From an uncultured virus (IMG/VR IMGVR_UViG_3300032007_000021) (taxonomy: Duplodnaviria > Heunggongvirae > Uroviricota > Caudoviricetes), in the IMG/VR virus record IMGVR_UViG_3300032007_000021: DNA of 63,351 nt. One strand, 5' to 3'. Position 1 is the stretch's first letter; every line of letters begins with the position of its first letter. The notes beneath the pieces were generated by a model, which saw nothing but the letters and a program-made list of their open reading frames with translations, was not told the origin of the DNA and searched no databases. Below, in pieces: positions 792-62,114 of the stretch. Made by a program: the position numbers and the translations under genes.

Positions 792-853
792 CCTTCATTT
801 TTGATTTGATGTTAAAAATTTTTCCAAAATAAAATTAACATCTCAAAATTTTA

Positions 854-10723: not shown

Positions 10724-11268
10724 ATCTATCTTTCCTGTTTTATTTCATTTTTTATTTCTATCAATTCTCCATCTATCAATTCACCTCTCCATCCACACCC
10801 TTCACAATAATAGCGGGAAAAACCTACACTCTTCGATGAATCAGGGTCTTTCGACCATCCCTATGCTTCTTCATCTATCTCATTAATTAATTCCTATGCC
10901 TATTCTTTCGTATATCCATAATACTTCAATTCTCCTACCTATATCTACATCAATAAATCTTTTAACCCTTCTATATCCCATTCACTTGTCTAAAAACTCC
11001 TGTTGTCTATATATCTTATCCGCTTCTTCGTCTATTCACTTACCTAACCAATATCATATATATAACACTATTTCCATTTCAATCTCTTCATGCTTTCATA
11101 TAATAATACACCGCATAATATCTATCCCTAACTAACTACTATCGGTTGATATTGCCCATGTCTCTTCAAACTCTCACAACATAACTATATCTGATGCTTA
11201 CTGTGCTTCCTCACCAAATATTCATTCTTCTTCAAATCTTTCAATCTCTTCTTCTATATCTTCATCAT
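10720..11268 (-). CDS. ParB/Srx N-terminal domain protein (paralogue 1)
   Basis: H..HQI..SLKRHGQYQPIVV...ILCG...IDNR..*TSEWD, with C-terminal CEGCG. Confidence 0.7.
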
Positions 11269-14647: not shown

Positions 14648-14716
14648 TTCAAATCTCCTTGATTTGTTGATTTTTATTTTACAATATCTATATAACAACA
14701 AAAAATTTTAATTACA
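14648..14716 (-). promoter_or_regulatory. repeated early-type promoter and leader (variant copy)
   Basis: TGTAATTAAAATTTTTTGTTGTTATATAGA...AAATCAAGGAGATTTGAA. Confidence 0.7.
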
Positions 14717-15281
14717 AAACTTTATCTGCAATTCCATATTCAACAGCTTCTTTTGCATTCATAAAATAATCTCTATCAGTATCTTTCTTGATTACATCTA
14801 TATCTTTTCCTGTATTCTTTACAAGCATATTCATCAATAATTCATTTAATCTGTCAGTTTCTTTCAATGAAACCTTCATATCGTTGATATGTCCCTCACA
14901 TCCACTTGCAACAGTATGTATCATCACTCTTGCGTTAGGCAAAACAAATCTTTTGCCTTTTTCTCCACTGGAAAGAATCATTGCTCCCATAGACGAACAT
15001 TGACCCATTCCATAAGTATATACCGGATTTTTTATCAGATTCATTGTATCTATGATAGATAGACCAGCAATAACAGAACCTCCCGGAGAATTAATATACA
15101 AATGAATTGGAGCAGAACTATCTTCACTCTGTAAAAACAAAAGTTCAGCAACCACCACGCTGGCCATATTGTCTTCAACCTGTCCGTGACACACGATAAT
15201 CCTATCTCTCAAAAGTCTGCTATATATATCAAAAGACCTCTCCTGTCCTCCATCATTACTAACAACCATCGGTATTAACAT
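14712..15281 (-). CDS. clpP: ATP-dependent Clp protease proteolytic subunit
   Basis: DIYSRLLRDRII, YINSPGGSV, CSSMG, MIH, DTDRDYFM, YGIAD. Confidence 0.95.
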   Translation of the reverse strand: MLIPMVVSNDGGQERSFDIYSRLLRDRIIVCHGQVEDNMASVVVAELLFLQSEDSSAPIHLYINSPGGSVIAGLSIIDTMNLIKNPVYTYGMGQCSSMGAMILSSGEKGKRFVLPNARVMIHTVASGCEGHINDMKVSLKETDRLNELLMNMLVKNTGKDIDVIKKDTDRDYFMNAKEAVEYGIADKVL

Positions 15282-16297: not shown

Positions 16298-16382
16298 TGG
16301 CTCGCTTGGCAGGACTTGAACCTACAAACCTTACGGTGAGAGATTAACAGTCTCTTGTGTTTACCAATTCCACCACAAGCGA
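16298..16382 (-). tRNA. tRNA with GTT (Asn) anticodon and a long variable arm
   Basis: TCGCTTG/CAAGCGA stem, AGAGA-CT-GTT-AA-TCTCT, variable arm CACCGTAAGGTTT, GCCA end. Confidence 0.8.
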
Positions 16383-18568: not shown

Positions 18569-19078
18569 TCATTTTTTCTTTTTAAAATTCAAACTTATAA
18601 TTCTTTCCTCTATTTTTAATTCATCCTATGTATAACCATATTCCTTAAGACTTTCTTTTATTCTTTCAAAAAAAGAATAAATATCATCTGTTCTTTCTAT
18701 TTCTCTTCCATTCAAAACAAGTGTTATCCGAACAACAGCATCATTTTTCAGAAACTATATAACATGATTTATTTTTATACGAAAATCATTGTCTGCTATA
18801 TTCAAGCGCAACTTAATCTATTTCTTTTCTTGAATATTAGATTTATTCTTTTTCCTGTTCTTATTTTGTTCATATTTTAATCTTCCAAAATCAACAATCT
18901 TAACCAAAGGAACTTCATTTTCTTTAATCAAAATTAAATTCAAACCCTTTTCTTCCGCAAGATTCAAACCCTAAATAAAAGTAAGTCCTTTCATTATTTT
19001 TCCGTTATTGTCAATCAAATCAACCAAACTATTACCTTGATAGCTTCCAATAGTCAACAAACTTTTCTAATCAACCAA
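18569..19078 (-). CDS. infC: translation initiation factor IF-3
   Basis: LIDNNG...*GLNLAEEKGLNLI...PLVKIVDFGRLKYEQ...K*IKLRLNIADND...FL...GRE; putative TTG start after GGGAG. Confidence 0.85.
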
Positions 19079-20330: not shown

Positions 20331-21341
20331 TTAATCGCATTTCAGTTTAAGAAAAACACCTTTCTTTTTTCCACAAACAGCATTCTTTTGAAAAACCATT
20401 TCCAATTCAAAAAATTTTATCCATTTTTCAATGTTGTCTTTTAATTTACTCAAACTCATATTCTCATCAGTATATAATTTCCACTACTCTTCCAAAAAAT
20501 CATTAGAAATAAAACCATCTCCGGCAAAAAGATTTGATTTGTTGTTCAACCAATTAGAAATAAACCCTAAAAACACTTCTCCAAACACCTATTTCGCTTT
20601 AGTGTATTTGTCCTACTTTTCTTGTGAATAAAGATACTTCTTCATCAGCTATTTTTTTGTACACTCATCTTCAACTGTAATAACTTGTTCATAATTTCCA
20701 TTGTTTGTTTTCAAATAAACATCATTGTCAATAGTAAAAGCTTCCACACCTTTCGGTATTTTTCTGTTACTATATTTTTTATAATTAATAGCAACCCCTC
20801 TGTCTATCAATTCCTTTCCAATCAACCATATTTCAGTATATTTTCCCTTCTACACCTATTCTTTTGTCAACACTTTTTCAGCAGTCTTCTGAAATATATA
20901 TTGATATTTCTCTAAAAACAAACTATATTCTTTCATTTCAGCTTCTTTTGCTTCATAACCACTACTCATACTGTGATACATACAACAAGTAGTATCAGAC
21001 AAATATCTTTCATCTCCACAAGTCCATAACATGAACCCAGCGCTGTCTATCTATCCCAATCCAATTGTGACAACGTATTCAAACTAATCTAATTGTTGAC
21101 CAATTAACATTAATGTTGTGCAAGAACCACCTGTACTGTGAATCCACACATGAATCTATTTTGATTTATCAGCATCTTTCAAATCCATCAACAAATCAGC
21201 ATAAGACGGATTTTCTTGATCTGCCTATTGAAAATCTCCGCTAAAAATCAATTCATATCTATCTTCTTTCTTATAAAACCTTATGGGTTTATCTTTATAC
21301 TTATCTTCTTTAATCTGTTCCAATCCTTCAAAAAAATTCAT
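20331..21341 (-). CDS. divergent ClpP-like (S14/S49) serine protease with C-terminal extension
   Basis: WIHSTGGS, G*IDSAG and CMYH motifs through TAGs. Confidence 0.65.
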
Positions 21342-23373: not shown

Positions 23374-24558
23374 TTATTTTGAAACTATAATTAATTCTTC
23401 CTCTGCTCTTGTAATAGCTGTGTACATCCATCTTCTATTGGTTTCTTTACTCTACCAAATCCCAAAATTTTCATCAAAAATCATAACATTTTTCCACGAA
23501 CTTCCCTGTGCCAAATGAGCTGTTATGCAATAACCAAAATTAAAATGAACTATATCCCGTTTATATCTTGAACTCATCAACTCTTCTTTCTATAATCCAA
23601 CAGTACCTTTTACTTTATGTTCTCCATTACAAACAATTTCATGAAAAACATCATCATGTTCCAACTAATCTATATAACAAAGCTAATAAACATCCTTTTT
23701 TACTTTGGCATCTTGTGTTAGATATACAATCTGTCCATGAAACAAGTTGTTTTTCAAATTGTTTGCCATACAAATTAATTTTTCATTTCTTTTCGGAATT
23801 TCATCACCAAAACCCTTTATTTCTCTTATAGTCTAATTAACAAGTTTTCTTTTCTTGTTTGTACCACAAATGATTTGCCCAGAACTCAACAACATTTCGT
23901 CAGTAACATCACACAAATGTACTTTTACAATGTTTTTTCCAAATTCCTCAAAAGGAATTTTCTATCCTCTTATTGCCATTTGAGATAATCTTATAATAGG
24001 ATTGTTCTACTGTTGCCTTAAAACTTGCTACATTCTATAATCCGTAACATTCATCAAATTAAATTTTGATTTTACCGGAGGCAGTTGTTGATGATCTCCA
24101 ACAAAAACAACAGGAATATTAAAACTTAACAAATCATTAAATATCTATTCGTTTATCATTGATGATTCATCAACAACTATTAACTTGTATGTTAAGAAAC
24201 TTTTCTTCTCAAACTAAAAATAAATTTTTCCATCAACAATATATTTTTTAGTATCATAAATAGCAGAATGTATTGTGTGAGTGTTCGACAAACCTTTTCT
24301 CTTTAAAGCTAAAGCCGCTTTACCAGTCAAAGCACAAAACAAAACATCACGTTCTTTTAAATTTAATTCTTCACACAAATAACTCAATAAAGTAGTTTTT
24401 CCACTTCCTGCAACACCACCTATAACAATATGTTGTTTTTTTGACGTATCTTTCCACCATGTTTTTATCAAACAAATCACATTTTTTTGGTCTTCTGAAA
24501 ACTAAGAAAAATCTTTAACTTCTATTGCAAAATTATTTTTATAAAACTAATCTAACAT
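23374..24558 (-). CDS. RecD/Dda-like SF1B DNA helicase
   Basis: GVAGSGKTT, VDESSM, GDHQQLPPV, VLRQ, YCITAHLAQGS, YTAITRA. Confidence 0.9.
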
Positions 24559-26887: not shown

Positions 26888-27433
26888 TTATCTCTATTCA
26901 AGCAATCTCTTTAAATCAAACTCATGTTTCGTCTCATCTTCCAAAATCTACTTGAACAGTCTCTCTGTAACATAATCTTTCAAGCCCTTAGCATAATTAA
27001 TGATGTCTTGATAAAAAATTCTGGCATCTCTCTCAGCATCAATCAAAATATTCAATTGCTACTTTGGATCAGACGTAGAAATAATTTGCCATGTATGACC
27101 AACAGAACTAATCTCATTTAAGTTAGTAACAACTCTACCACCAAGCTCTTCTATTCGATGTGCTATCTTCTATAAATGCTATGCCTATTCTGTCATATGC
27201 TAATTATATTCATCTAAACAATCCACTCTTCCCTATCCTCTTACAACATGAGAAGCAGTGAAGTATTGCCATGTCGCCGTTGTCTCATCACAAAAAGCAA
27301 CAATCAATTTTTCAACCAAACCCTAAACTGTAAAAGTCTTCTTCTATTCATTCTAATCTATAATTCCTTCTAACGCTTCAATCATCTTACTTAAATCAGC
27401 TTTCTATTCTTCATACGATTTAATCATCTTCAT
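26888..27433 (-). CDS. ferritin-like (DpsL/bacterioferritin) protein
   Basis: DE.TA.WQY, *HMTE*A*H..KIAHRIEELGG, AERDA..FY, D.VT, ILEDETKH di-iron motifs. Confidence 0.8.
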
Positions 27434-30326: not shown

Positions 30327-31349
30327 TTACATTTTTTGCGAAAAAATCACACAAGCCTGAAATACCATGAATTTCAAACTCGGCAAAGGGTTTGGATCAA
30401 CAAAATATCCAACATCAAAAATCTTAAAAGCCTATAAATATTGAACAGATTTTTTAGTCAATCCATTCATCTATAATTTCTTGGTTAAATATGTCCTCAT
30501 CATTCTTCTAAAACCTTCACAATCTATATTCTAATTACTATTTATCTATTGTATAAATCCATTAAAATCTCCTTTCTAAACCATTTGACATAACTTCCAA
30601 TAATCTATTTTCTTTTCTCCAGATATTTGAGAAAGACTATCTATTCCACCATTTACAAATTGATTGAAATTATTTAATATTTCTCGATAACTCATTCCTT
30701 GAACATAATCAAAAAATATTTGCTTCTGCTAACTTGTCAGATTTGCCATCTACTGTGAACATACTCCGCTCAACAATTCGGAAATATCCTTCTTGGAAGG
30801 TAATTTGAACTCATATTTTTCACATCTATTCTGCAACGTCTTTATTAACTTATTTGATTCTGTAGTACAAAATATCATATAAGTATTGGCAGGAGGATTT
30901 TCCAAAGGTTTTAACAACAAATTTTGAGAAGATGATGTTAACATTTGAGACTCATCCATAATCCAAATATTATTTCTTCCAGTTAAAGATGTCTGATACA
31001 TCTACTAAACAAGTCTATCTATATCTTCTTTTGTCCCCGTACTACCAATATTAATATCATGTATATTCAAAGCCCTTTCAGCCAATGCTTGTTTACAACT
31101 ATCACATTCCAAACAAGGTTCAACAGTATCTCCTTTCTAACAATTCAAACCCATAGCCAAAATCTTGCTAATGGTAGTTTTTCCACATCCTGATTGACCA
31201 ACAAACAATAAATTTGTAGAACGCTACTTTCCCTGCTACATCCATTTTATCAAATTCTTTTTGATAGATTCGTTCCCTATTACCTCACTGAACTTTCTTG
31301 GTCTATATCTCTATATAATCTGTTTCTAACCTCTTCTTATTACACCCAT
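30327..31349 (-). CDS. dnaX: clamp loader, DNA polymerase III gamma/tau-like
   Basis: RYRPRKFSEVIG, GQSGCGKTT, LNC..PCLECDSC, IMDESQML, LLKPLENPP, TLQNRC. Confidence 0.9.
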
Positions 31350-38385: not shown

Positions 38386-40572
38386 TTACAAATAATTATA
38401 AACAAATTCTTCTTTTTGATAATCAACTTTTACTTTACCACCATTTTTCAATTTTCCAAACAAAATTTCATCAACAATCTTTTCTGATATATATTTGTTA
38501 ACAAATCTTTCAACAGGTCTTCCTCCCATATTTTCTTTAACAGAATCATCAACAATTTTTTGGACACAAGTTTTAGTGATTTCTATCTAAACATTTTTGT
38601 CCTTCAAATCTTTATTTATTCTACTAATATTTTTATAAACAATATTTTCCATAGATGATTTAGAAAGATTGTTAAAAAAACAAATTTCTGAAATCCTATT
38701 TCTAAACTCCGGAGGGAATGTCTTTTTCATTACATTTTCAATAATTTTTCCTTTTTCTTTTTGTTTATCTTCTTCTGTAACAACAAACCCAACAGCCGAA
38801 CTTGTTTGTTCAGCAACAGATATTCCAACATTACTTGTCATAAGCAAAATAACATTTTTAAAATTCGCTTCTCTACCATTATTATCTGTCAGTTTTCCTT
38901 CATCCATTACTTGCAACAAAAGATTATACACATTTTTATGTGCCTTTTCAATCTCATCCAACAACACAACACTATTAGGATTACGAATAACTGGTTCTGT
39001 CAATGCTCCACTTTGTTCATAACCAACAAACCCCTGAGCGCATCCAGTCAACTTGTTTACATCCATTTCCAAAGAATATTCGGACATATCAAGCTTCACA
39101 AAATTCATACCAAGATTTTTCGCTAACAACTTGGAAAACTCTGTCTTTCCTGTTCCTGTCGCACCAAGCAAAAGAGCAGACAGACATTTATTATTGTTAT
39201 AAAGTCCAGCTTTCATCATTTTAATTTTTCTAACAATAGAATCAACTGTTTCATCCTGACCAAACAACTCTGTTTTTATTCCAACATCTAACATTTTTAT
39301 TTTTTCAGTTTCATCCTTACTAACACTTATTTCATTAATATTAGCCATTTTACAAACAACATTCTCGACATCTTTTCTTGTAACATTTTTAGATTTTACA
39401 AAACCGGAACGATGTTTAGCACCTATTTCATCCATTACATCTATAGCCTTATCTGGAAAATGCTTATCAAATAAATAACGCGCAGACAAATCAACAATAT
39501 CTCTCAACACTTCGTCAGAATATTTAACTCCATGAAACACCTCATAATCATTTCTTACACCCTGAATAATTTCAAAAGTCTCTTCTTTTGAAGGTTCAAT
39601 CAAATCTATCTTCTTAAATCTTCTTGCAAACGCTTTGTCTTTCAATATTTTTTTATATTCATCATAAGTAGTTGCACCAATCACTCGCAACTTTCCATTA
39701 GACAAATAAGGCTTCAATATGTTACTCGCATCTAAAGCACCCTCATTTCCTCCAACACCAGCTCCAATAATCGTATGAATCTCATCTATAAACAAAATTG
39801 ATTTCGGATTTGTAGAAATTTCTTTTATAACATTCTCCAATCTCTCTTCAAATTCTCCTCTAAATTTTGTTCCCGCAATCATAGAACCCATATCCAAAGA
39901 CCAAACTTCAAATCCCTTCATAGATTTTGGAACACTATTTTCTGCAATCCTCAAAGCAAGACCTTCAACTACACTCGTTTTTCCACAACCTTCAACACCA
40001 CACAAAATTACATTATTACTCTTCTTCTTGTTTAGAATTTCAATCATCCTTTCTGTTTCACTATTTCTACCAATAATTTTACCAATTTTACCTTCCTTTG
40101 CCATATCCACAAGATTAACAGCAAATCTATTCAAAATTCCATTACAAAACTCTTGTCTTTTTCTAATATAATCACTCACATCAGATTCTTTAATTCCAAC
40201 CTTTTCCAAAAAGAATTTGGCAAAACTATCTTCATCTTCAAACAACGACTGAAAAAGTTGAAGACTATCCGGCTCCATAGCCCTCAAATTAGCCATTACA
40301 ATAGCTCTCTGTATCACCTGTGTATAAGCATTTGTCGGAACAATTTTACTTATATCTGTTGTTTTATCAAAATCCTTAAAAAAAGCATCAACATCTTTTT
40401 CAACCACATTTAAACTAAATTTATTTGTTTTAAAAAAATCCTTCACTTTCTTATCATTAAGCAAAACCTTCAACAAATGCTCCGGAACAACAAAAGCATG
40501 TTTGTTTTTCTCAACATAAGTTTGAACTTCACCAACAATCTTCTTCAATTCAGCATAATCTTTTTCATTCAT
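38386..40572 (-). CDS. clpA: ClpA-type Hsp100 ATPase
   Basis: Two AAA modules (GVEGCGKT/FIDEIH; GATGTGKT/LLDEIEKAH), GTKFRGEFEER, PEFRNRI; C-terminus completed across TAG 38587. Confidence 0.92.
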
Positions 40573-40576
40573 TCTT

Positions 40577-40876
40577 TCAATCCCTTTCAATCGTTACTTT
40601 CAATGGAAAATTATTCTTTTTAGCTGCATCCAAACAAATACTTTGTTTGGTTTCTGCTATTGATTTTATATAAATACCAGCTACACCAGACCCTTTTTGA
40701 TGTATAGTCAACATCAAATCTACAGCTTCATCAACCGTCTTATCAAAAACTTCTGTCAACATCCCAATAACAAAAGCCATTGTAGTAATCTAATCATTCC
40801 AAAAAATGACCTTGTATTTATGTGGCATCTAAACATTTATTTTTTCAACTACACTTGTTTGACTTTTATTTGACAT
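40577..40876 (-). CDS. clpS: ClpS adaptor
   Basis: YKVIFWND*ITTMAFV...MLTIHQKG.GVAG.Y...IAETK...FPL; directly upstream of clpA. Confidence 0.9.
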
Positions 40877-42018: not shown

Positions 42019-43146
42019 TCAAATTTCTCCAGATTCAACAATTTCATTTTCTTCCTGAAATTCATTCACAATCTATTCATCACTCATCGTTTCAACTTCT
42101 ATCTGTTCTTCTTTCAATTCCACAATATTTCCTTTCAATTTATCTTCAAGTTTCTTTTTCATTTCTTCGTATAATTCAGGTTTCTGTTCAAGTAATTCTT
42201 TAAATTTTGTTAAACCTTGAGCAATATTTTCACCTTCATAAGCTATCCAAGCACCTTTCTTTTGAACAATACCTCTCTAAATTATCCCTTCAATTACTGT
42301 TGCTTTATTGTCAATACCTTTACCAAAAGAAATGATAAATTCACCTTTTTTATACGGAGGAAATGTTTTATTCTTTGTGGTTTCTGCTTTCACTCTAATG
42401 GAAACTTTTTCTTTATTGTCTCCTGTACCTTCCTCAACAGCTCCAATCTTGGAAAATTTAATTCTAATGCTGTCATAATACTTCAGAGAATTTCCACCAG
42501 CAACCGTCTATGGATTTCCCATCATCACCCCAATTTTATTACGAATCTGATTTGTAAAAACAATAGTTGTACCATATTTTGCTGCTATTGGAACAAGTTT
42601 CCTTAAAGACCTACTCATCATTCTGGCTTGTACTCCCATCAATTGTTTTCCATAGTCTTCTTCCTCTGTTTCTGATCTTGGAACCATAGCCGCAACACTA
42701 TCAACAACAATCAAACTACAAGAACCCGTTTCAATCAATCCCTGAACAATACCAAAGGCATCTTCTCCTGAATCTGGTTGTGCCAAAACAAGTTCTTCAA
42801 TATTTACCCCCACACTTTTTGCATACGAATTATCCGAAGAATATTCAGAATCTATAAATGCAGCGAACTTATTTGGATATTTCTTTTGGGCTTCGCTAAT
42901 AGCATGATAACACGCTGTTGTCTTACCACAACTTTCTTGACCATATAATTCAACTATTCTTCCTACTGGCCATCCTCCACCAGTAATTTCGTCCAAAGCA
43001 ATACTGCCCGTTGGGATTCTCTCCAAAGGCTATATTTTAGTATTTCCAAGAAAATTCACAGAACCCCTACCAAACTTTTTCTGTAACTCACCACATATCT
43101 TATCTAATACCTAAAATTTTTTCGCTTTAATTTTATCTTCACTCAT
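42019..43146 (-). CDS. recA: RecA recombinase
   Basis: IPTGSIALD, GQESCGKTT, IVVDSVAAMVP, NQIRNKIGVMMGNP*TVAGGNSLKYY, KNKTFPPYK. Confidence 0.97.
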
Positions 43147-44294: not shown

Positions 44295-45626
44295 TTATAC
44301 AAAAATATATGACTTTATATAAGATTTATCTGAATTTAATCTATAAGAAACTCTAATATTTTTATTTTTATCAGAGAAGAAATTTCTGTAACACATCTTA
44401 AACTTCTTTTTAAGAAATTTAGAAACCTCACTCCAAGTTGGAACTTGCTAAAAATTAGAACTTATCTCTTTCTTCCAACGATTCGATAAATCCTCAAGTT
44501 TTACCTTGGTATCTCCAAATTTCTTTAAATCTTCATCTTTCCTTTTTCCAATCTAAATTGCGGCAGCTATAGAATCAATTTCTTTCTAATTCTATAATTG
44601 TCCTTTAATTGAACTATATCCTGCAAAAACTTTTTGCACTTTAATTCCTATCAAATTACATCTTTTCTTTAAATTATTAACAAAACAATTTCTTAACCAA
44701 TCATTATTACAATTTTTATTAAAACTTTTTCCTTTCTTTTTATCTGAACTTTTTATATTTAAATCCTACAAAACCAATGTCTATACTTTATATTGTTTTA
44801 ATATCTACGATATTCTTTTGCTTATTTGTAATGTTTCATATTTTCTTTTATTATACAAATATTTTCTATATTCAGCCTTGTTTTCTTTATCTTTATAAGA
44901 TTTCTTTTTATCTAAATCATTTAAATCTTTTAACGAAAACACAGTTTTTAATAAATGTTTATTATTATCTGATATAACTAAAGCTATATAATTAGGATTT
45001 TGGTCTATTGATGCTATTCTATTGTTTTGGGGATTGTATTCTTTATCTTTTAATATTATCTAATCAAATATTAACCAAACATATTCTTGATTTAACTAAA
45101 CAGTATAACTAAAAGATTTTTTATTTTTATCATAAATTTCTTGCAATTGATTCAATAATTCTTTTTGATTTTTACTTACAATATATTCCAAACAAAAATG
45201 TTTACTTCTATTTTGTTTAAATATTATTTTATCATTTTTCAAATCCAAGTCAACTTTTCTGTTCCCGTTATCCTATTTTCTTCCTATAATTCTCAACGGC
45301 AACATTCTTAAATTTATAATTTGTTCTTTTGTTAGAAAACCATTAAGATATTTTTTATAATTTGTTTTCCCGCCAAATATTACTTTCTATCCATTTGTTT
45401 TATAAATTTGTTTTGATTTAGCAACTGCAAACTAAATAATTGAATAATCCAACTACTAAATATTATTCATATTTACTTTTACTAATTTTATAACATCAGA
45501 ATCTTTAATAATTCCATTATTATCAGAATAACGATTATAAGCAAATCTAACAACATTATTAAATTGCTTCAATAATCTCTAATATCCTTTTTGTTCTTCT
45601 TTTAATTTTAATTTAATCGTTATCAT
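44295..45626 (-). CDS. tnpB: TnpB (RuvC-type RNA-guided nuclease family)
   Basis: RFAYNR, IFGGK, GNRK; RuvC-I SIDQNPNYIA, RuvC-II LVL*DL, RuvC-III IDSIAAAI*IGKR. Confidence 0.8.
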
Positions 45627-45691
45627 TAAATATTTCCTTATATTCTTTTATATTTTCATATATAAATTTATATAAAAGAATTATTTTGTTT

Positions 45692-46288
45692 TTATTCATT
45701 TTGAGGTATAATTATATTCTAATTTGTATCTTGTATTTTTAATTGCTACTATATTTTTTTGGCTTTATTTTTTCCACGTCTCAATCCATATAATCTACAA
45801 CAAAAACTTGTAACAATAGAAACTAAATCTTTTATCAAATCAACTTCATTATTTTCATTTGGAAAAATAACTTCTATATTACAACTCAACTTTTTCAATA
45901 ATTTCTACAAATAATTAAATCCAAATCTTGTCAATCTATCTTTATTCTAACAAACAATTGTTGTAGGATTACTTTCCATCATTTTCCAAAATTCTTTTCT
46001 GTTATCATTCATTCCAGAAGCAATCTATTTATAAATCTAATCTATTTTTATTCCTTTAGATATACAATATTGTTTACATCTTTCAACTTGCAACTATAAA
46101 TCATGTTTTCTATCTTTACTCGAAACTCTACAATAAATTACATTCCTTATTTTTTTTATCTATTCATCTTTTACTACTATGGTTCCGCTATGCAATTGAT
46201 AAGCATTAGGTATCAATCCTTTCTTATACCAATTATGCGCAGTTATATATGTTACATTATTTTTCTTTGCATATTCTGATAATTTCAT
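45692..46288 (-). CDS. tnpA: IS607 transposase (HTH plus serine recombinase)
   Basis: MKLSEYAKK, YCRVSS, *IASGMNDNR, C*NKDRLTRFGF, RLYG.R. Confidence 0.88.
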
Positions 46289-46343
46289 AATTAATATTCT
46301 CCTATGTTTTTATATATTTTATTCTACTAATTGTGAAATTCCT

Positions 46344-46814
46344 TTATGTCGTTTTCACCGTCAAAAGATTTGCTGTAACTAAAGCTGTCATGGAATTTAA
46401 TACAAAACCCTTTGCTTTCCACGCCTCAAAATAAACACTGGCCATATCTCTTTTACTCTTCAATTCGGTTAAATTATTACTCAATATCTCTAATTCTTTT
46501 TCGTATTTTGTTTGAACAAGAGCTTCAATATCTTTTACAGTATTTTTCTTTCCCAATCTGCTTAAGCTATTATTGCAATCCGCATACATTTCATTATATC
46601 TGAAATGATATTGCCTCTAAACCTCATCCAACTTATTTTCTATCTGTTTATATAAAGTACCATAATAAGCAATTCCGGCAGCTTGCATTTGCAATGCTTC
46701 TAAATAATTCTCTTCTGTTACAACCAAATTATCATAACTTGGATCATCAAACCTATTTCCATTAAATTCCATATTTTGACCATTCTAAAATGCCTTTTCA
46801 AAATTAACTTCCAT
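46344..46814 (-). CDS. helical protein, possibly a UvsY-like recombination mediator
   Basis: Frame extended through TAGs; position upstream of ssb/recA; EAWKAKGFVL. Confidence 0.45.
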
Positions 46815-46815
46815 A

Positions 46816-47514
46816 TTATTTCTCCTTTATTTTTTTCAACTATTCCAAAAAATCTTTTTTATCGTGTTTTTCACAATATTTTTTCATTGATTCTACAAAC
46901 TATTTTATCGTCATATCTCCCCTGGAATAAGATAATATCTTTTCTCCCAAATTCCTTTCTTTTATTTCTTCAAGCAAACGAGTAGCTAACTCAATAATTT
47001 TATTTTTTATCGCCAAATCTACAATATCTCTTTTCCTGATTCTCAAACTATCTTTCTTTTCGTATAAAAATTTATCAACAATCCAAGACGAACACACAAA
47101 AGCTATATCCGCAGGTAAATATTTCTTGTTTCTCTACAAACTGAAAAAATCATCCCAAACCCAATCTAAATACTCTTGAGAATTGGAACCCTAACTCAAC
47201 AATCTTTCAATAGTTTTAATTAACAAAGAATTTGTAACTATATTCATCGGCTTGTCATAAGACATGTCTATATTCTATATATATTTCTGTTTGAATATTG
47301 CAATAAATTCTTTCTTTTGTCTAACAATTCCTTTCTATTCATTGTTATCTTCACCATCTCCGCACTTTATTAAAGCCTATTTAATCCTCAAAGAATTATT
47401 GGAAGCAATTAAAGCATTTTTTAAATCTAAAGACAATTTATCAAATTCTTCATCTGCTATCCACAAAGTTAAGTGCATCTTTATTTCATCACTCAAAGAA
47501 ATTACTCTTCCCAT
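46816..47514 (-). CDS. hypothetical protein
   Basis: Continuous frame through TAGs to TAA. Confidence 0.6.
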
Positions 47515-47531
47515 TCTTTCAATTCCCTTTT

Positions 47532-48506
47532 TTAAATCCCCAACTCTTCTTTCAATTCTCTACTTGCATAAGATAAAATATAATCCTTTTTACTCTAAAA
47601 ATCTTTTTCAGAATAAACTTCGAAACTTATCATCTATAATCCAGCTTTTTTTGTCTTTAATCCAAAAATTTTCATCACCCTTGCAACATCAAATTCAACT
47701 CTCTTCTTTACAGCTATCTAAATAACATCTAAAAAACCATTCTTTTCTATTTTCTTTAGAAAACAAATTTTTTTCAAAGCATTCAACAACCTGTCAAAAT
47801 CATTGTACTAATTATTTATGTAATATTTTATCCACTTCGGTCGTTTCCCGGTTAATAAACAATAAAAAACAAAACCGCTCAACAACTATCCATTTGTAAA
47901 CGCATAACCTTTATTTAATAATTTATTTTTATAATTACTAATCTATATTTCATCAACACAGCCAATAGATAAATTATCAAAACCAAACATCCAACTCAAA
48001 ACCAATTCATCCTCAAAATCATTATTAAATATCACTTGTTCCAACTTATCGCTCAATATTTTGATTCTTTTCGGATTAAAATAAAATCTACTTGAAATCT
48101 AACCAAACTAATTTACAACAACATTGTTTTGAAAAAAACAAATACAATTGTTCTATAACAAATACTGTTTTACATCTTCCCAAGAAACCCATTTTCCTTG
48201 AATATAAGCCAAAGTTTTCTTATACCATATATTATAAGACTACTCATCATATACAACCTGTTTTAATATCATTGGAAGCACATTAAAACCAACATTCTAA
48301 ACTTCATCCATGGTAGAATATATTGGAGGTAATTTCCCGAACAATAACTATTGAACAGTATTAAACTAATCACTTTTGCTGAAAATAATAGCCTAACCAT
48401 CCAATGTATAAGAACGTCCAGCCCTTCCAATACATTGATTTATTTCATTGGCATCTATATATTTGTTCCCCCTTTTTACACCACAAACAATCACTTTATC
48501 AATCAT
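47532..48506 (-). CDS. C-terminal half of a Ski2/Hel308-like SF2 helicase
   Basis: MIDKVIVCGVKRG..IDANEINQCIGRAGRS..DG*AII (motif VI), WYKKTLAYIQ, winged helix *FG*ISSRFYFNP. Confidence 0.7.
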
Positions 48507-48650
48507 TTTCAATCTCTATTTTTCATATTTGTTTTCAAAAAATTGGTGCTACTTGAATTTAGCCACTTGCACCGAGCGACCCTATTCAGGCTCAAGCTAC
48601 CAGAAAGCTAAAACTTTTCGTATAAAACTACTTGTTTCGCTTTAAAAAAC

Positions 48651-48725
48651 TGGCACCCCCAGTCGGTTTCGAACCGACATTAGCGGAGTTAGAGTCCGCT
48701 GTCCTAACCGTTAGACGATAGGGGC
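48651..48725 (-). tRNA. amber suppressor tRNA (anticodon CTA) with a tRNA-Glu-type body
   Basis: GCCCCTA TC GTCT AACGGTT AGGAC A GCGGA CT-CTA-AC TCCGC TAAT GTCGG TTCGAAA CCGAC TGGGGGT G CCA. Confidence 0.93.
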
Positions 48726-48865
48726 AAAAGGTGACAAGTCCAATAAAACCTTGTCTGTAAAAATCGGCATTTTTTACATGTAGAATTTTCTGGTCTACAA
48801 ACGCAAACAGGAAAAAAGAACACTGTTAAGAAAAACAACAATCAACAATTTTTTCTCAACATTAT

Positions 48866-48894
48866 TTATATAACACAAAAAATTTTTGGTTACA
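48866..48894 (-). promoter_or_regulatory. early-type promoter upstream of the suppressor tRNA
   Basis: TGTAACCAAAAATTTTTTGTGTTATATAA, the same motif as the repeated promoters. Confidence 0.6.
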
Positions 48895-48906
48895 TTTTTT
48901 TATCAA

Positions 48907-49251
48907 TCAAAAATCAAAATCTTCATCAAATTTCACATTATTGTAATGCAACCACTTCGCCATATCAAAATTGTCTATCACTGTCCAAACAGTACAAATA
49001 TTCTCATTTATATATTCCTCAAAAAACCACTCATTGTTAGCAATCCAGCCAAAATCTAACTATTCTGTTTCAACATGAAAAAAACCATCACCATCTTCTA
49101 TCACCGGAACATTCTTTTCTTTCCACAACTTCAAAACATTTTCACGATAGTTTTTTACAAACTATCTTTTTTCTTCAGAAAGATCAAACCAATCATAAAT
49201 GATAAAACTACTGCTGGAACTGTTGCTTACATATCCGTTCCTTATCTTCAT
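48907..49251 (-). CDS. MKIRNGYVSNSSSSSF-family hypothetical protein
   Basis: N-terminal motif; two internal TAG; ends TGA. Confidence 0.7.
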
Positions 49252-49638
49252 TATTTTTCTCCTATTTTTATCAATCTAACACTAATTTCATCTTGAATCG
49301 GATAAGCAAACATTACAAGTCCCCTTCTCCCAACAACCACTTCTCCAAAAACTTCTTTTGTCTATCCTTCATTTTCAACAATCATAATTTCATAATCTTC
49401 TTTTTCCAATTTATCAAACAACATCTGTTTAAATTGCTCAAAATAATTGTTAACATATTTTTCATAATTATATCTCTTAAGAACAGACATCTCCACTTCA
49501 ATCATCTTAATCAAAAAAATTTGTTCATCTTTTATCTGTTCAATCTAGCTCTTTTCATTTATCATAAAAATACTTTTAGATAAATCAGATGATTTTCTTA
49601 CAAAAACTGGCAACTAATCATTTTTTATCTTATAAAAC

Positions 49639-50127
49639 TTACTCATTATCTTCAACAACCTTTACTTCAAAACCGTCTTCATTCATACTAACAATAAATC
49701 TATGATAAGGATATGTTTCTCGCAAAAACTTCAAAAACTGTTTTTTGTTGTAACTCTTTGCCACATCGTGTTGCTTCAACAGCCAAACACTTCTATCACA
49801 ATCAACCTTATACTCATTAAACAACTCATAACATCTTGGACTCTTACCTAAATCACCTTCTTCGTAATAATAATTTTCAACAGATTTTATAGCATCATAT
49901 TTTTGATCTTCACTATCACTGACAAGCTCTGTCAAAAAATATTTTCTATCCAAATCCAATAAAATTTTGTTTTTATCAAATTCTTCAAATCCCCAACTAT
50001 GATTATTCAATCTTGCCTTGACTTCTTTAGATAATTCCAAACAAGCAACACCCTTATCGCTCAAGTCTTCTCCAACAATAAAACTACTGCTGGAACTGTT
50101 ACTCACATATCCCTTCCTTATCTTCAT
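49639..50127 (-). CDS. MKIRKGYVSNSSSSSF-family hypothetical protein
   Basis: N-terminal motif. Confidence 0.7.
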   Translation of the reverse strand: MKIRKGYVSNSSSSSFIVGEDLSDKGVACLELSKEVKARLNNHSWGFEEFDKNKILLDLDRKYFLTELVSDSEDQKYDAIKSVENYYYEEGDLGKSPRCYELFNEYKVDCDRSVWLLKQHDVAKSYNKKQFLKFLRETYPYHRFIVSMNEDGFEVKVVEDNE

Positions 50128-50131
50128 AATA

Positions 50132-50389
50132 TTATCCTTTATTTATATAAGCTAAAATTTGTTCTTCATTTATAATCCTATAAATTGTTCCTTCAACCTT
50201 CACTTCTGTTCCATCATATTGTTTAATCAATACTTCATCACCAACCTCAACATCTATAACATCTTTACCAACATCTTCCACAAAAAACTTACATTCCTTA
50301 CTAGAGTCAGGAACAATCAATCCTCCAACAATTTTTTCCTATTGTTCTACTCGAACCAAAACATTGTTTCCAGTCATTTTCAATTTCAT
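50132..50389 (-). CDS. groES: co-chaperonin GroES
   Basis: GNNVLVR...*EKIVGGLIVPDS, VEVGDEVL..YDGTEVKVEG..Y.IINEEQILA. Confidence 0.85.
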
Positions 50390-50590
50390 TATTTATCTCT
50401 CCCTATAAAATCAAAATATATATCATTCAAAATCTCATATTTCCTATCAGAAAAATATTCCTCCGCAACCATCAAAAACTCTTTCACTTTTTCATCTTCA
50501 ACATTACTTTCTTTTTGCATCAAATAATTTTTGAAATCAGAAAAATTAAATTTCAACGAAACAGAACTATTACTCTTTTTTACTTCCATC
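50389..50590 (-). CDS. hypothetical protein
   Basis: MEVKKS start after GGAG. Confidence 0.5.
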
Positions 50591-50603
50591 TTGTTTCTCC
50601 TTA

Positions 50604-50807
50604 TTATTCCAAACCTTTCTTGGGATAAGAAACCGTCCAATTATTACAATCTGAAGGATCAGACTCTACACAATCTTTTCCAGACAACTTAAGTTTGTTG
50701 AGTTTAGCATAACTTTTAGCTTCAACAAAATCATCAAAACCCATCACAAACTTACCTCTGCTCATGACATACCAATCAAACTTCCAAGTCGGTGTTAGTT
50801 CTTTCAT
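50604..50807 (-). CDS. hypothetical protein
   Basis: Track ORF with GGAG RBS. Confidence 0.55.
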   Translation of the reverse strand: MKELTPTWKFDWYVMSRGKFVMGFDDFVEAKSYAKLNKLKLSGKDCVESDPSDCNNWTVSYPKKGLE

Positions 50808-50874
50808 TTTTGCTTCTCCTTCATGTTAAATTTTCAGGTTTACACCTTCTAAATAACAAAAGGATTTTTTATTT

Positions 50875-51726
50875 TCAAATCTATTTGATGATTTCGCTAA
50901 CTTTCAACTACATCATACATCTCGGAAATTTTTGATTGCGATATTCAAAAACATGTTTACATGTTCTTTCATCTATCTCTCTCATAAAAAATTTCATACA
51001 TCCATTATTCTTATTATATCTCTCACACTCGCTAACAAAATGTTTCGTGTTTTTGTATTTTGTCAAAATCTAAGGTTCTCTTGCTCCAGATAAAACAATA
51101 TTTTTTACATTATCAAAAGCAGAAGCGATATGTGTTATAGCACTTGGAGGCGAAATTATACCTTTAGCATTACTAACAAGACTTATCAATTCTCTTATGG
51201 ATGTTTTTTGTCTTAAATCTATAACTCCCGTTAATTCTTGTTGTATATCCCTCTATTCCTTTCCACCTATCTGTATAAACTGTATGTTTTTTCTTGCATT
51301 TACTATTTCTTGATACCACGGATACGCTTTAGTTTCAGAACAAGTTTGACAATTAGCATTAATTATCCAATAATCTCCATATTTGTTTTCTTTCTCCTCA
51401 TCTGTCAAATACACATCAAAAACATTTTTTACTATTGGAAATTTTTTATTTAATATTCTCATACAATTTACATTAAAAGCATCAGTCAACAAACCACCAT
51501 TACCAATTTTTTGTGAAAACGGAACATACTACAATTTTATTTTTTTACAATTTCCATCATCTTCAAAAAAATCAACAAAAGGATTATTTTTAAAAACATC
51601 TTTATAATTTGTTTCAAAACCCACTTCCAACTATGGAAACTCTTTTTTTAAATTAAAAATAACACTTGTACAAATAACAACATCACCCAAATGATTATTT
51701 GTACTAAACAAAATTCTTTCTTTCAT
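50875..51726 (-). CDS. GT9 (heptosyltransferase-like) glycosyltransferase
   Basis: HLGDVV.CTSVI.NLKKEFP, NNPFVD, QIG, TSIRELISLV..A..IISPPSAITHIASAF. Confidence 0.75.
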
Positions 51727-52174
51727 AAATCTCCTTTTTATTCTTAAAAACATATTCAAGCAAAATAGAAACAGCCTTTCTATATCTCTTTAAAAGACCA
51801 AATTTTCCGGTTTTATCAACAACACACCTCATGATATTATCATATAAATCAGCTAATTTTACCTTAATTGCCATTTCATTTGTTTTCAATCTTTCAATAT
51901 AGTCGAAATATTTTTCTTCCGGTTTTCTTGTAATGGCAAATAAAGCTTCTTTCTGTTCTTGAGAAAGAAAAATCAATTCAACTAATTTATCTAAATCAAA
52001 ATATCTTTCTTCAACAACATCATGAAACAGAGCGACTGGAAAAAGTTTGTCTTTCTCGTCTTTTTCATAAAAAGAATGATTCTGTATAAGATCAGCAACT
52101 CTTTTCCAATGAAAAAACTCTTCTTTATCCATAGCTATTCTTTTAGCAATAGAAATCAACTCTTCTTTATTCAT
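51695..52174 (-). CDS. HD-domain protein (SpoT/Mesh1-like hydrolase)
   Basis: H..RVA, ALFHDVVE, AITRK, Y.DYI, VKLADL.DN. Confidence 0.8.
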
Positions 52175-52605: not shown

Positions 52606-52681
52606 TGGCAGCCCTTGAAGGAGTCGAACCCTCACAGACGCGGGACCAAAACCCGCCGCGCTACCATTACGCAAAAGGGCT
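52606..52681 (-). tRNA. tRNA-Gln(TTG)
   Basis: AGCCCTT/AAGGGCT stem, GCGGG-TT-TTG-GT-CCCGC, GCCA. Confidence 0.85.
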
Positions 52682-55957: not shown

Positions 55958-57259
55958 TTATAACTTTGAATCAAAGTTTAATATTTGAATATTACTCTTC
56001 TTATAAAACTTACTAAAAACTGCATTTTGAATATTATCCATTAGCAGAAACCTATATTTTAAATCAAGTTTTTTAACTTTTTTGTAAAGTTCCACCCAAG
56101 ATTCAACTCCCTAAAGTGTTTGCTTCCACTGCTCATCTTTAGGTTTAACATCAAATTTTGGATAAAACCAACTTTTTACATACTTCTTATATCCTCTTCT
56201 TGCTATTTCTATCGAACTTGCAACCATATCTGGTGTATTATAATTTCCAAACAAAAGATTTCCAATAAAACTTGAATATGCCGGATTAACTTCAATTAAT
56301 TTATATCCATGTATATTTGCCAACATGTTCAATTTGTTTTTTATCAAATGCCGACACCAAACATTATTACACAATCTATTAAATTCCTTTCCCTTGCCTT
56401 TATCAGAAGACCTAATTACCAAATCCTCAATTACCATATTTGAACACTTCCAAATATTCATCAACACATCTATTTTATAACAAACCTTTATTAACTCATA
56501 TTTTCTTTTCCTGTTTTGATATTCCTTATCTTTTGTTAACAAAAACTTTTTATCGTTCAAACGAAACATATTGAACACTTGCTTATATAACACGTTAAAT
56601 TTATTCTTACAATTAAACTACAAAACAGACAACCCAATAGCATTAGGATTCAAATCAATTCCCAAAACTCTTTTTGATTTCAGATTATCATAAAACTTTT
56701 CTTTCATCAAAGATTCATCATAAGCAATCCACACATTCTAATTATTAAATTTCACTGAAACTGTTACTTCTCTTTTGTCTATTAAATTTTGCAAAACACA
56801 CAATTCTTTTTGAAATTTTCCGGAAAACTTATTAATTTGTATTTCTAATTTTTGTCCTTTATGCGGTTTATAATATATTTTATTGTTGTTCAATTCAAAA
56901 TCAAAACATCTATTTCCTTTCATTAATTTCTAACCTTGAATAGATATTGGAATTTGTCTCTTTTTCTTTAACTACTATTTACAAATCAAACCTCTTAAAT
57001 ATTTCTTATAATTTGTCTTTCCCCCAAACACTATTTTTTTATTTTTAAACTTAGAATACAACATCTGCCCTTCTTTTACCGCACATTGTATAAACCAACT
57101 ATTCTATCCTAAAAACAATTTTTTACAACAAGTTCTAACTTGTTTTTCATTCATTCCATCTTGGAAACGATTAAAAGCAATTCTTACCAACGAATTAAAA
57201 CTTCTTAATTCTTTAGTAAAATCAACTTTATTCATAATCTTTGCTTTAATTGTTTTCAT
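55958..57259 (-). CDS. tnpB: TnpB
   Basis: RIAFNR, VFGGK, IQG*..KGNR, LGIDLNPNAIG, VIEDL, VNPAYSSFIG, PDMVASSIEIARR. Confidence 0.85.
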
Positions 57260-57860
57260 CTTTCTCTTCCAACTATTTTCTTATTTTATTTAATTTTCTT
57301 CTGTGAGAATAGCTTTTTATAGTAAAATAATGAATAATAGAAATCAAATCATCTGTCAATTCTTGTTCATAACTCCTGTTCTCAAGAACATCATTTAAAA
57401 CTAAAATAGTACACCCAAAATATTTAAATATCTGTTCTATAATCTAAAATCCAAACCTCACTAATCTATCTTTGTTTTCAATCACAACAACAGAAATCTC
57501 ATTACTAATTACTCTTCTAATAATCTCTTGAAAATCTTTTCTATCTGAAGACATCCCTGATTTTATATCAAAATATTGTTTTTCAAGCACTAATCCTCTC
57601 GATATACAAGATTCATATATTCTCTTGTTTTGTTCATTTAATTGTTCTTTTTGTTTTTGTGTAGATACTCTCGCATAAGACACTATAGATTTCTTTTGTT
57701 TACAAGATTTTTCTCCAATTAAAGCATATACAGACTCATCATCATACTCAAAAAAATTTTTGCTAAATTTTGATTTAACTTTTATTTTTCCATTTTTAAC
57801 ATACCTACACAATGTTTGTCTTGTGATTCTCAAAATCTATAAAACTTCTTTTGCTTTCAT
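57246..57860 (-). CDS. tnpA: IS607 transposase
   Basis: MKAKEVL*ILRITRQTL, YARVST, DIKSG, IENKDRLVRFGF*, EL..DLISIIH.F...YS.RR. Confidence 0.9.
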
Positions 57861-60302: not shown

Positions 60303-62114
60303 TTATAAAGCAAAAAATTCTTGTTCACTAATAATCTTAATCCCAAATTTCTTTGCTTTATTCATTTTAGACGATGTACTATTTACATCAGCACAAACTA
60401 AAATATTTAAATCTTTAGAAACACTATCTACTGGAACAAATCCTTTTTCTCTTGCTTTATCTTCCATTTCTTGTCTTGTATATGAACTCTTTCCTGTAAA
60501 ACAAATCTTTTCTCCTTCTTCAATTTTTTCTTCTTCTACATCAAACAATGACAACAATCTCAAATTTCTTTCTCTGTTTTTATTAAGACCTTCAATTACA
60601 TTCTTACTTGTAATCTCTCCAATACCTTCCATTCCACAAATATCAGCAATAGTTAGAGATTTCAAAATATAATCCAAATTAAACGATTTTAGAAGCGTTT
60701 TAGATACACTTTCACCAAGGTTTGATATATTTAATGCCTTAAGGAATAAACTCGCTTTAACACACTTTATTTTAGCTAATTCGCACATAATATTATCTTG
60801 CATGGTTTTGCCAATCCCATCAATTCCTATCAAATCTTTTTTCTGTATCATCAAGAAATCATAAAGATTATCAATGTCAGTCTTTTTCATAATGGAACGA
60901 ATTACACTCTCTCCAATTCCAAAAATACCAAGACAAGTAAGTTGCCAAGTAACATTTTTCACTTTTCCTTCAAAACAATGTTCATTCAAACAAACAACAC
61001 TATTATCATCAATTCTTATATCACTTCCACAGAAAGGACACTTTTCTATGCTTACTATCTCCCCTCTCGGATTAGATTCTTCAATATTTACAATATAAGG
61101 AATAACCATCCCCGCCCTTTCAACCACAATTTTGTCTCCTATTGCAATATCTCCGTGAACAATATATTTACCACCATCACTTCTTTTTGTAAGAGATATA
61201 GACGCTTTAGTGATTGTAACTCCCTGTATATCTACGGGATCAAAAACAGCAACAGATGTAATTCTGTTATCTTTACCCATTCCCCATTCAATACCCACCA
61301 ATTTCGTAACAGCTTGTTCATTTGTAAACTTCAAAGCAATTTGATTTTTGGGATGATGTTCTGTTCTGCCAAGACTATCTCCATATTCTTTATCTTTCAA
61401 CTTGATAACAATACCATCCATAGGATAATCATATCCATTTATCTGTTCTTCTATCTTTTCAAATTTTTCATCAAATTCTTTCATCTTTATCTCAAAAGAA
61501 TTTTTGTCATAATCTACAAAAGTCAAAACCGCACCTTGCTTAAAATAAAAATCAGCATCTTCATTACCAACAATACCACTCACAGCATTTCTACTGTTTT
61601 TGAAAGTCTTTCCAGATTTACTTTTAATCTTTCTATATACAGTATTAAAATCATTATTCGTAATTACAATTTCTCCAAGAACATAATCTTTTGTAACATC
61701 AACAATTTTATTGCTTTCAATTCTTATCATCTTCAATTTATCAGAAATATTGCTTCCTTCATATCCGTTTCCTCTGGTAGATAATTTACCTTCTTCCAAT
61801 TTTCCGGAAATACCATCATATTTTGGCTGAATCAAAAACAATTCTTCTTCGTTTCTTGAAACTTGTTCCATCCATTTTTTCAACTATTCTTTTGTATAAA
61901 CCTTATTTAGGGATAACATTGGAACCTTATGAACAATCTTTTCCCCAACAACAACAGGTTCATTAACTTGACAAACCAAATCATTGTTAGGATCAATTTT
62001 TCTTAATTCCTCAACCAATTTATCATATTCAACGTCACTAATATCGGACACACCATCTTTCCAATATTTTTCATTAGCCCCTTCAATCTTTTCAATCAAT
62101 TCTTCTTTGTTCAT
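60303..62114 (-). CDS. ligA: NAD-dependent DNA ligase
   Basis: ISDVEYD, HKVPMLSLNK, KYDG, STRGNG, DGIVIK, zinc finger, BRCT; two track ORFs joined by a single TAG at 61884. Confidence 0.95.

Follow-up and report, generated by a model that had tools for sequence, protein, structure and literature searches.

Which amino acid does a phage insert at TAG when it reads this stop codon as sense, and which tRNA brings it there? The question is raised by a tRNA gene with a CUA anticodon at positions 48651..48725, on the minus strand, of a 63,351-nt stretch of DNA from IMG/VR record IMGVR_UViG_3300032007_000021 (Caudoviricetes); this whole stretch is called the window below. The end of a metagenome contig of 187,352 bp matches part of it (44689-52085) with 100% identity, and we therefore take the phage to be roughly 187 kb in size. 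We consider it likely that this ~187-kb phage uses TAG as a glutamate codon and that the tRNA encoded at 48651-48725 is its decoder.

The amino acid at TAG codons

TAG is a sense codon in this phage. Under code 11, minus-strand stop-to-stop frames of at least 100 amino acids amount to 8,399 amino acids; this figure becomes 18,773 when TAG is read, compared to 12,246 when TGA is read and 10,771 when TAA is read. Of the 76 long frames, 43 have TAA and 33 have TGA as their stop codon. The 69 non-overlapping open reading frames (ORFs), comprising 17,412 codons, contain 337 TAG codons, next to 1,195 GAA, 232 GAG, 322 CAA and 113 CAG codons.

Two minus-strand genes served to assess the residue at these codons: a DnaX-like clamp loader (30327..31349) with 14 in-frame TAG codons, for which we used homologue columns, profiles and relatives, and a Dda-like helicase (23374..24558) with 12, for which we used homologue columns, a profile and the relative P0121. 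Glutamate is the commonest residue in 7 of the 14 clamp-loader TAG columns when 64 phage-type homologues are aligned and in 5 of the 14 with 55 bacterial DnaX proteins, while glutamine is the commonest in none of them in either set. At codon 200, glutamate is found in 59 of the 64 phage-type and 54 of the 55 bacterial homologues, and at codon 71 in 57 of the 64 phage-type homologues. In the Dda columns, taken from a query-anchored phmmer alignment of 150 cluster representatives, glutamate is the commonest residue at 5 of the 12 TAG sites, sharing the lead at one of these, and glutamine at none.

Homologue profiles built without the query gave glutamate as the best of the 20 residues in all three sets, over glutamine by 5.7, 1.6 and 4.4 bits, and the runner-up was glutamine or lysine each time. 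In masking controls at true Glu, Gln, Lys, Asp or Asn sites, the true residue was recovered in 15 out of 15 cases, a result that query-anchored alignments favour.

Of the 14 TAG sites, 7-8 hold glutamate and 0-1 glutamine in five relatives of the clamp loader that look unrecoded (P0002-P0006, 66-67% identical). The public protein P0001, a copy of the 30327-31349 clamp loader, has glutamine at all 14 sites; it is a translation under table 15 and probably in error at every one of these sites. Since this protein is stored with glutamine, glutamine in close relatives is in part a habit of annotation, which biases such comparisons against glutamate. P0121, the closest relative of the Dda-like helicase (53% identical, its TAG codons stored as glutamine), shows "glutamine" at 10 of the 12 positions where the gene in the window has TAG and also at 8 where it has GAA or GAG, and only three glutamates match a glutamate. 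This is a pattern of exchange between TAG and GAR (GAA or GAG), as expected if the two were synonymous in the clade. A single protein query against IMG/VR gave no close relatives, and with an alignment as query the best hit was 40% identical.

Pfam models, which are independent of recoded phages, allowed 25 domain comparisons in 22 proteins with TAG scored as X, E or Q. The net difference was +14.9 bits for glutamate over glutamine, and the large gains for glutamate came from Ferritin (+6.8), IF3_C (+5.0), Resolvase (+3.6), NADAR (+2.8) and RecA (+2.4 bits). A Ferritin/Dps-like protein (26888..27433, minus strand) with 12 in-frame TAG codons, also placed in PDB alignments, scores 61.6 bits against Ferritin with X, 73.4 with E and 66.6 with Q. 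The corresponding scores for IF3_C are 57.4, 65.2 and 60.2 bits in an IF3-like protein with five in-frame TAG codons (18569..19078, minus strand), and those for RecA are 282.8, 286.3 and 283.9 bits in a RecA that likewise has five (42019..43146, minus strand). One of the RecA TAG codons sits in a GNP-x-T motif that a PDB alignment matches to GNPET of E. coli RecA.

The use of TAG is patchy: 19 of the 69 ORFs have less than 0.5% TAG, and 20 have at least 3%. Glutamate codons make up 9.7% and glutamine codons 2.0% in the 19 TAG-poor ORFs; in the 20 TAG-rich ORFs, GAR accounts for 7.1%, CAR (CAA or CAG) for 3.0% and TAG for 4.6%. The frequencies of TAG and of glutamate codons are inversely related (Spearman rho -0.36, p 0.003). 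An earlier sequence-only reading of this DNA had proposed that TAG means glutamate, and the independent protein evidence, that is, the columns, the profiles, the Pfam net and the relatives, speaks for this rather than for glutamine. Judged from these comparisons, TAG very probably stands for glutamate and not for glutamine.

Structure and body type of the CUA tRNA

According to ARAGORN the window has 12 tRNAs, each of them on the minus strand and with an encoded CCA; the one at 48651-48725 is the only CUA tRNA among them. Rfam RF00005 matches it at 48654-48725 (minus strand) with 58.3 bits (E 5.2e-10; gathering score 29). Its anticodon CTA, the complement of the codon TAG, lies at 48690..48692 (tRNA positions 34-36); ARAGORN places its start at position 34, in the loop CTCTAAC. 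The acceptor stem (GCCCCTA/TGGGGGT) includes the pairs G1:U72 and U6:G67 and is followed by U8 and C9. The D stem is of the GUCU/AGGAC type, with U11-A24 and with U13:G22, the latter drawn by ARAGORN, and closes the D loop AACGGUUA. A five-bp anticodon stem (GCGGA/UCCGC), to which ARAGORN adds A26-U44, carries the loop C-U-CUA-A-C, and a variable loop of 4 nt (UAAU), the T arm GUCGG-UUCGAAA-CCGAC, G73 and CCA complete the molecule. An identical copy (100%) is present in the 187,352-bp metagenome contig (locus L393).

The clean cloverleaf described in the sequence-only reading is thus borne out by the ARAGORN call and the Rfam score, and each feature listed there (the loop CT-CTA-AC, A37-C38, a 4-nt variable loop, G73, G1:U72 and CCA) is present. 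The body also differs, as had been stated, from that of the phage's own ordinary tRNA-Gln(UUG), called by ARAGORN at 52606..52681 (minus strand), which has A1-U72, the D arm TTGCGTAATGGTAGCGCG and a longer variable loop. Another claim, that the gene has its own promoter-like motif at 48866-48894, did not hold up. A sigma-70 scan of 48300-49300 gave 2 sites versus 4.4 expected and none at 48866-48894, and the window contains 8 copies of TTGTGTTATATAA with up to two mismatches versus 8.06 expected, so that the motif stands at chance level. Directly after the encoded CCA, a G and six T (48644..48650, minus strand) could mark a transcript end as far as the letters go; a terminator scan of 48300-49300 returned zero sites, and we therefore leave this as a remark.

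ARAGORN labels the gene tRNA-Pyl because of its anticodon alone. tRNA-Pyl has an atypical build, with a very short D loop, a 3-nt variable loop and neither G18G19 nor the T-loop consensus. We rejected this assignment: the 8-nt D loop with GG, the 4-nt variable loop and the T loop UUCGAAA are all canonical.

The D arm is the most telling part of the body. Its 18 bases at tRNA positions 8-25 (TCGTCTAACGGTTAGGAC; 48701..48718, minus strand), which include U11-A24 and U13:G22, were used as an exact string to scan one genome per bacterial or archaeal species, which gave at least 120 loci. Among the matches listed, 117 are predicted tRNAs, and all 117 are tRNA-Glu (64 UUC, 53 CUC); G1:U72 occurs in 48 and G73 in 10 of these 117. 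Since both features occur in natural tRNA-Glu with the same D arm, the acceptor end of the CUA tRNA is an ordinary one for a tRNA-Glu. When the CUA tRNA was compared by blastn to 50,697 phage records, 38 matched, of which 35 are annotated as tRNA-Glu, two as tRNA-Gln (one phage entered twice) and one is unannotated; the phage's own tRNA-Gln found zero matches in this collection. The tRNA-Glu(CUC) of Alistipes putredinis has the same D arm, is identical to the CUA tRNA at positions 8-26, and shares with it G1:U72 and a variable loop of 4 nt, whereas the two tRNA-Gln of this species have U1-A72 and a different D arm. Global identity of the CUA tRNA to all 40 Alistipes tRNAs did not separate the isotypes.

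By its sequence, then, the CUA tRNA has a glutamate-type body, in agreement with the bacterial tRNA-Glu scaffold proposed for it: both the exact D arm (117 of 117 among the matches listed) and the phage records (35 of 38) point to tRNA-Glu. The shared D arm and acceptor end further imply that replacing CUC by CUA in such a tRNA-Glu, one change, would yield the CUA tRNA. This origin, too, had been suggested before, and it fits the existence of CUC isoacceptors with the same D arm and G1:U72.

Known identity elements refine this picture. The accessible part of PMC9976931 gives, as the set for glutamyl-tRNA synthetase (GluRS), U11-A24, U13:G22 with A46 and no residue 47 (the "augmented D helix"), a modified U34, U35, C36 and A37, and it describes G1-C72 and U2-A71 as weak GluRS determinants in E. 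coli. The same text has U1-A72 used by amidotransferases, with G1-C72 and U20a as antideterminants. The CUA tRNA carries U11-A24, U13:G22, A46, U35 and A37 and, by our own numbering, has no residue 47. It departs from the glutamate set at two anticodon positions: position 34 is C, which it shares with the 53 natural CUC isoacceptors, and position 36 is A where the set has C. It also departs in the weak determinants, having G1:U72 and C2-G71 in place of G1-C72 and U2-A71. From the glutamine set it lacks U1-A72, G2-C71 and G3-C70, with G1:U72, C2-G71 and C3-G70 in their place, as well as G36 and U38, with A36 and C38 instead. It has G1 and, by our own numbering, one extra D-loop U (compare U20a). 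The argument of the sequence-only reading that GatCAB would find no U1-A72 here agrees with PMC9976931, the paper that is its basis.

Another of the window's tRNAs has an unusual combination of body and anticodon. At 16298-16382 (minus strand), ARAGORN predicts an 85-nt "tRNA-Asn(GTT)" whose variable arm is long. It matches 171 phage records, and among the matches listed (10) all are annotated as tRNA-Leu, which suggests that a GUU anticodon sits on a body of the leucine type.

Glutamate-like CUA tRNAs in other phage lineages

A pattern scan of metagenome contigs yielded 39 loci with 24 distinct CUA tRNAs that have this type of D arm, 15 of which start with G. Twelve CUA tRNAs, including that of the window, fold into one cloverleaf; of its 21 pairs, 15 show compensatory changes, and 10 of the 12 tRNAs have G1:U72. 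In this alignment the search pattern dictated the D arm and the loop, and G1 reflects the selection of the sequences, so that U11-A24 in 12 of 12 is required by the pattern. As judged from the compensatory changes, the fold of these glutamate-like CUA tRNAs is under selection. A looser pattern of D arm plus CUA, applied to IMG/VR, gave 113 loci with 22 CUA tRNAs, 15 of them distinct. Most of these have U1, which indicates that the exact D arm, and not the general shape, is specific for glutamate.

Variations on the theme were also seen. T loops without the TTC consensus occur in glutamate-like CUA tRNAs of other low-GC contigs, at 3963-4037 (minus strand) of L392 and at 2820-2894 and 4217-4291 (both minus strand) of L417; the CUA tRNA gene of L417 is present as two tandem copies about 1.4 kb apart.

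In the lineages represented by L411 and L388, all four Pfam comparisons favour glutamate over glutamine (+8.0, +0.9, +5.7 and +3.4 bits). The near-identical contigs L392 and L411 show 0 TAG exchanges in 1,905 codons. In a further phage, G002 (IMGVR_UViG_3300028048_000269, 37 kb), glutamate is favoured in five of eight Pfam comparisons, glutamine slightly in two, and one is a tie.

Two of these contigs deserve a description of their own. L411 encodes, at 470-1222 (plus strand), an ADP-ribosyltransferase-like ORF that scores 73.0 bits against ADPrib_exo_Tox with TAG as glutamate versus 65.0 with TAG as glutamine; both residues of its conserved ExE-type motif are TAG codons. G002 has, at the sites L009 19-92 and 1729-1804, L010 705-778 and L015 1501-1572, a CUA tRNA, a UUA tRNA, a tRNA-Glu(UUC), a tRNA-Gln(UUG) and a tmRNA.

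On balance, we lean towards the view that a separate phage code, in which TAG alone means glutamate and which is kept by a glutamate-scaffold tRNA(CUA) charged by the ordinary GluRS of the host, has arisen in or spread to several unrelated low-GC lineages. These would comprise the present 187-kb phage, L392/L411, L388/L395 and G002.

Charging, alternative explanations and known systems

We propose the following course of events. A tRNA-Glu would have kept the marks of the augmented D helix (U11-A24, U13:G22 with A46 and no residue 47) together with U35 and A37, while the anticodon CUA replaced CUC or UUC. The resulting tRNA would be transcribed along with the other minus-strand genes of the phage and would need no CCA addition. 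GluRS would charge it with glutamate, most likely in the form of the host enzyme tolerating A36, although our preference for host GluRS as the charging enzyme is a slight one. Conversion to Gln-tRNA by GatCAB would be avoided because U1-A72 is lacking and the D loop has an extra U. The charged tRNA would then be in competition with release factor 1 wherever TAG stands in frame (337 times among the 17,412 codons counted in the window), and it may act as the sole decoder in the whole genome.

A number of observations weigh against this proposal. Among the profiles, that of bacterial DnaX puts glutamate over glutamine by 1.6 bits only, and in the phage-type DnaX profile TAG sites stay below true glutamate sites, at about 1.2 versus 2.4 bits per site. 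The Pfam signs are even (12 for glutamate, 12 for glutamine and one tie); CLP_protease (20331-21341) favours glutamine by 3.3 bits, the remaining wins for glutamine being small. The Pfam test also stands without a glutamine-positive control, the intended glutamine-type control phage, G005, having given differences of -0.2, -1.4, -0.3 and +1.4 bits. The slope of the compensation between TAG and glutamate codons is -0.25 and not -1. On the side of the tRNA, C34 and A36 replace the modified U34 and C36, the strongest anticodon determinants of E. coli GluRS in the accessible part of PMC9976931. G73, G10, U35 and A37 of the glutamine set are all present, though common to many tRNAs; glutaminyl-tRNA synthetase (GlnRS) can make use of G73 and G10, of a CUA anticodon and of a first pair that is weak. 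The CUA tRNA of G002 has U1-A72 in the ARAGORN register, yet the TAG sites of this phage favour glutamate, so that the first pair is insufficient as a predictor. In the near-identical contigs L398 and L413, of another lineage, the sole exchange that involves TAG is with CAG (one event in 1,115 codons), although such counts are too small to carry weight. Finally, the window represents 63 kb of a ~187-kb genome, and a second decoder or a phage GluRS may lie elsewhere in it.

Several of these points would suit ordinary code 15, under which the body is glutamate-like, GlnRS nevertheless accepts the CUA anticodon and TAG means glutamine, as in crAss-like phages. G73, G10, U35, A37 and the weak G1:U72 pair are compatible with it, as is the slight lean to glutamine in 12 of the 25 Pfam comparisons. 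Amber suppressors are glutaminylated in E. coli according to work cited in the available portion of the Borges preprint (10.1101/2021.08.26.457843), which again speaks against glutamate, and mass spectrometry found TAG to be glutamine in two crAss-like phages, as given in the accessible text of PMC9523058. It is nonetheless hard to reconcile with code 15 that glutamine is the commonest residue in 0 of the 40 TAG column tallies, the columns aligning with glutamate, that glutamate is best in all three profiles and ahead in the Pfam net, and that close relatives without apparent recoding have glutamate at 7-8 of 14 sites and glutamine at 0-1. Reading TAG as glutamine would, moreover, mean 7.6% glutamine in TAG-rich versus 2.0% in TAG-poor genes, and the tRNA has none of U1-A72, G2-C71, G3-C70, G36 and U38. 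We therefore regard code 15 as highly improbable here. Mixed decoding, in which the tRNA is charged partly with glutamate and partly with glutamine (or lysine) and TAG, being ambiguous, is tolerated mostly where a site is exposed and acidic or polar, would account for the lower conservation of TAG sites compared to true glutamate sites (about 1.2 versus 2.4 bits per site in phage-type DnaX), for glutamine or lysine coming second in all three profiles and for the split Pfam signs. We find it improbable as well: TAG occupies near-invariant glutamate columns (DnaX codon 200 in 54 of 55 bacterial and codon 71 in 57 of 64 phage-type homologues; the glutamate of GNP-E-T in RecA) and both glutamates of an ExE motif in a related lineage, and such near-invariant sites would be expected not to tolerate a large fraction of glutamine.

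The code and the tRNA could also be as we propose and the enzyme a different one, namely, a phage GluRS adapted to CUA and encoded in the other ~124 kb. With A36 the tRNA loses a determinant that counts strongly for E. coli GluRS, the phage already has translation genes (IF3 and 12 tRNAs), and huge phages carry GluRS genes (Extended Data Fig. 7 in the accessible part of PMC7162821). Against this, a Pfam scan of 61 ORFs of the window gave no synthetase or release-factor domain, smaller contigs with glutamate-like CUA tRNAs, such as the 37-kb G002, have the same signal for TAG as glutamate, though these are themselves fragments, and synthetases are rare in recoded phages according to the available portion of the Borges preprint (10.1101/2021.08.26.457843); a phage enzyme is thus unlikely. 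The idea that the CUA tRNA is not the decoder at all, being in decay or otherwise used while another phage tRNA or a host suppressor reads TAG, draws on the window covering about one third of the genome and on suppressor tRNAs being found in only 40% of TAG-recoded phages (Borges et al., 10.1101/2021.08.26.457843, in the portion available). We give it hardly any credence, since the cloverleaf is intact (58.3 bits) with an encoded CCA, it is the sole CUA tRNA of the window's 12, its body type agrees with the residue inferred independently from proteins, and in homologous glutamate-like CUA tRNAs compensatory changes preserve the pairing (15 of 21 positions).

The genomic surroundings are those of an AT-rich phage (29% G+C) with nearly all genes of the window on the minus strand. 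Genes for replication and repair include a clamp, the clamp loader, the Dda helicase, SbcCD-like proteins, RecA, RuvC, an NAD ligase, ThyX and a dNMP kinase. ClpP, a ClpB-like ATPase, Cpn10 and IF3 are encoded as well; the phage-encoded IF3 (18569-19078, minus strand) has both the IF3_N and the IF3_C domain, besides its five in-frame TAG codons. Examples of TAG-poor ORFs are the ClpB-like ORF (38386-40590), the ligase (60303-62114) and ClpP (14712-15281), and examples of TAG-rich ones are an SbcC-like (8612-9796; 20 TAG) and a ParB-like ORF (10720-11268; 14 TAG). Two IS607-like pairs of a serine recombinase and a TnpB-like ORF, at 44295-46288 and 55958-57860 (both minus strand), have 9+15 and 3+7 in-frame TAG codons, respectively, and are thus mobile elements written in the phage's own code.

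Stop-recoded phages with a suppressor tRNA of their own are known, and our results support the view that glutamate in place of glutamine is the new part. In the available portion of the Borges preprint (10.1101/2021.08.26.457843), only TAG-to-Gln and TGA-to-Trp are seen in phages whose code differs from that of the host. Al-Shayeb et al. (PMC7162821), in the accessible part, write TAG in huge phages as "X" and also depict GluRS genes of phages; Cook et al. describe the amino acid at TAG in Lak phages as unknown, and a 2026 survey of jumbo phages takes TAG as glutamine. A literature search of full texts, with supplements outside its scope, found no phage paper that reports TAG as glutamate. The glutamate reading, if true, adds a second amber code in phages and points to a mechanism in which GluRS rather than GlnRS is hijacked. 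Automatic table-15 translations would then misassign about 2% of the residues here, including conserved and probably catalytic or metal-binding glutamates, and if the code is indeed a separate one, databases mistranslate such proteomes with glutamine under table 15, as has been the case for proteins of the window itself. The CUA tRNA would offer a natural glutamate-inserting amber suppressor, with which the question of how an anticodon-reading synthetase accepts CUA becomes directly testable.

The phage resembles the code-15 phages (crAss-like, Lak, the Garnet, Topaz, Agate and Jade clades, and phAss-1; 10.1101/2021.08.26.457843, PMC9523058 and PMC10607447, in their accessible parts) in its low GC content, in-frame TAG codons in many genes, a coding density that is restored when TAG is read, a phage-encoded CUA tRNA and patchy use of TAG. 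It differs from them in that its TAG sites are glutamate-like, not glutamine as in table 15, and in the glutamate-type body of the tRNA. With bacterial tRNA-Glu(CUC/UUC), for example those of Alistipes, Bifidobacterium and Saccharibacteria, the CUA tRNA shares the 18-base D arm, the 4-nt variable loop and the loop C-U-N-U-N-A; in contrast to these, it has A36 instead of C36, so that UAG and not GAG is paired, and its gene is phage-encoded. NCBI table 30, used in peritrich ciliate nuclei, also assigns TAG to glutamate, but it applies to eukaryotic nuclei and gives TAA the meaning of glutamate too, whereas TAA still ends genes here (43 of 76 long frames) and the host presumably uses the standard code. 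A tRNA-Glu with a CUA anticodon can insert glutamate at UAG: Normanly, Kleina and Miller are said to have made the E. coli GluA amber suppressor from tRNA-Glu, and a human glutamate suppressor tRNA has reportedly been engineered by giving tRNA-Glu a CUA anticodon. Unlike these laboratory tRNA-Glu amber suppressors, which are engineered, the tRNA described here is natural and would support hundreds of sense TAG codons.

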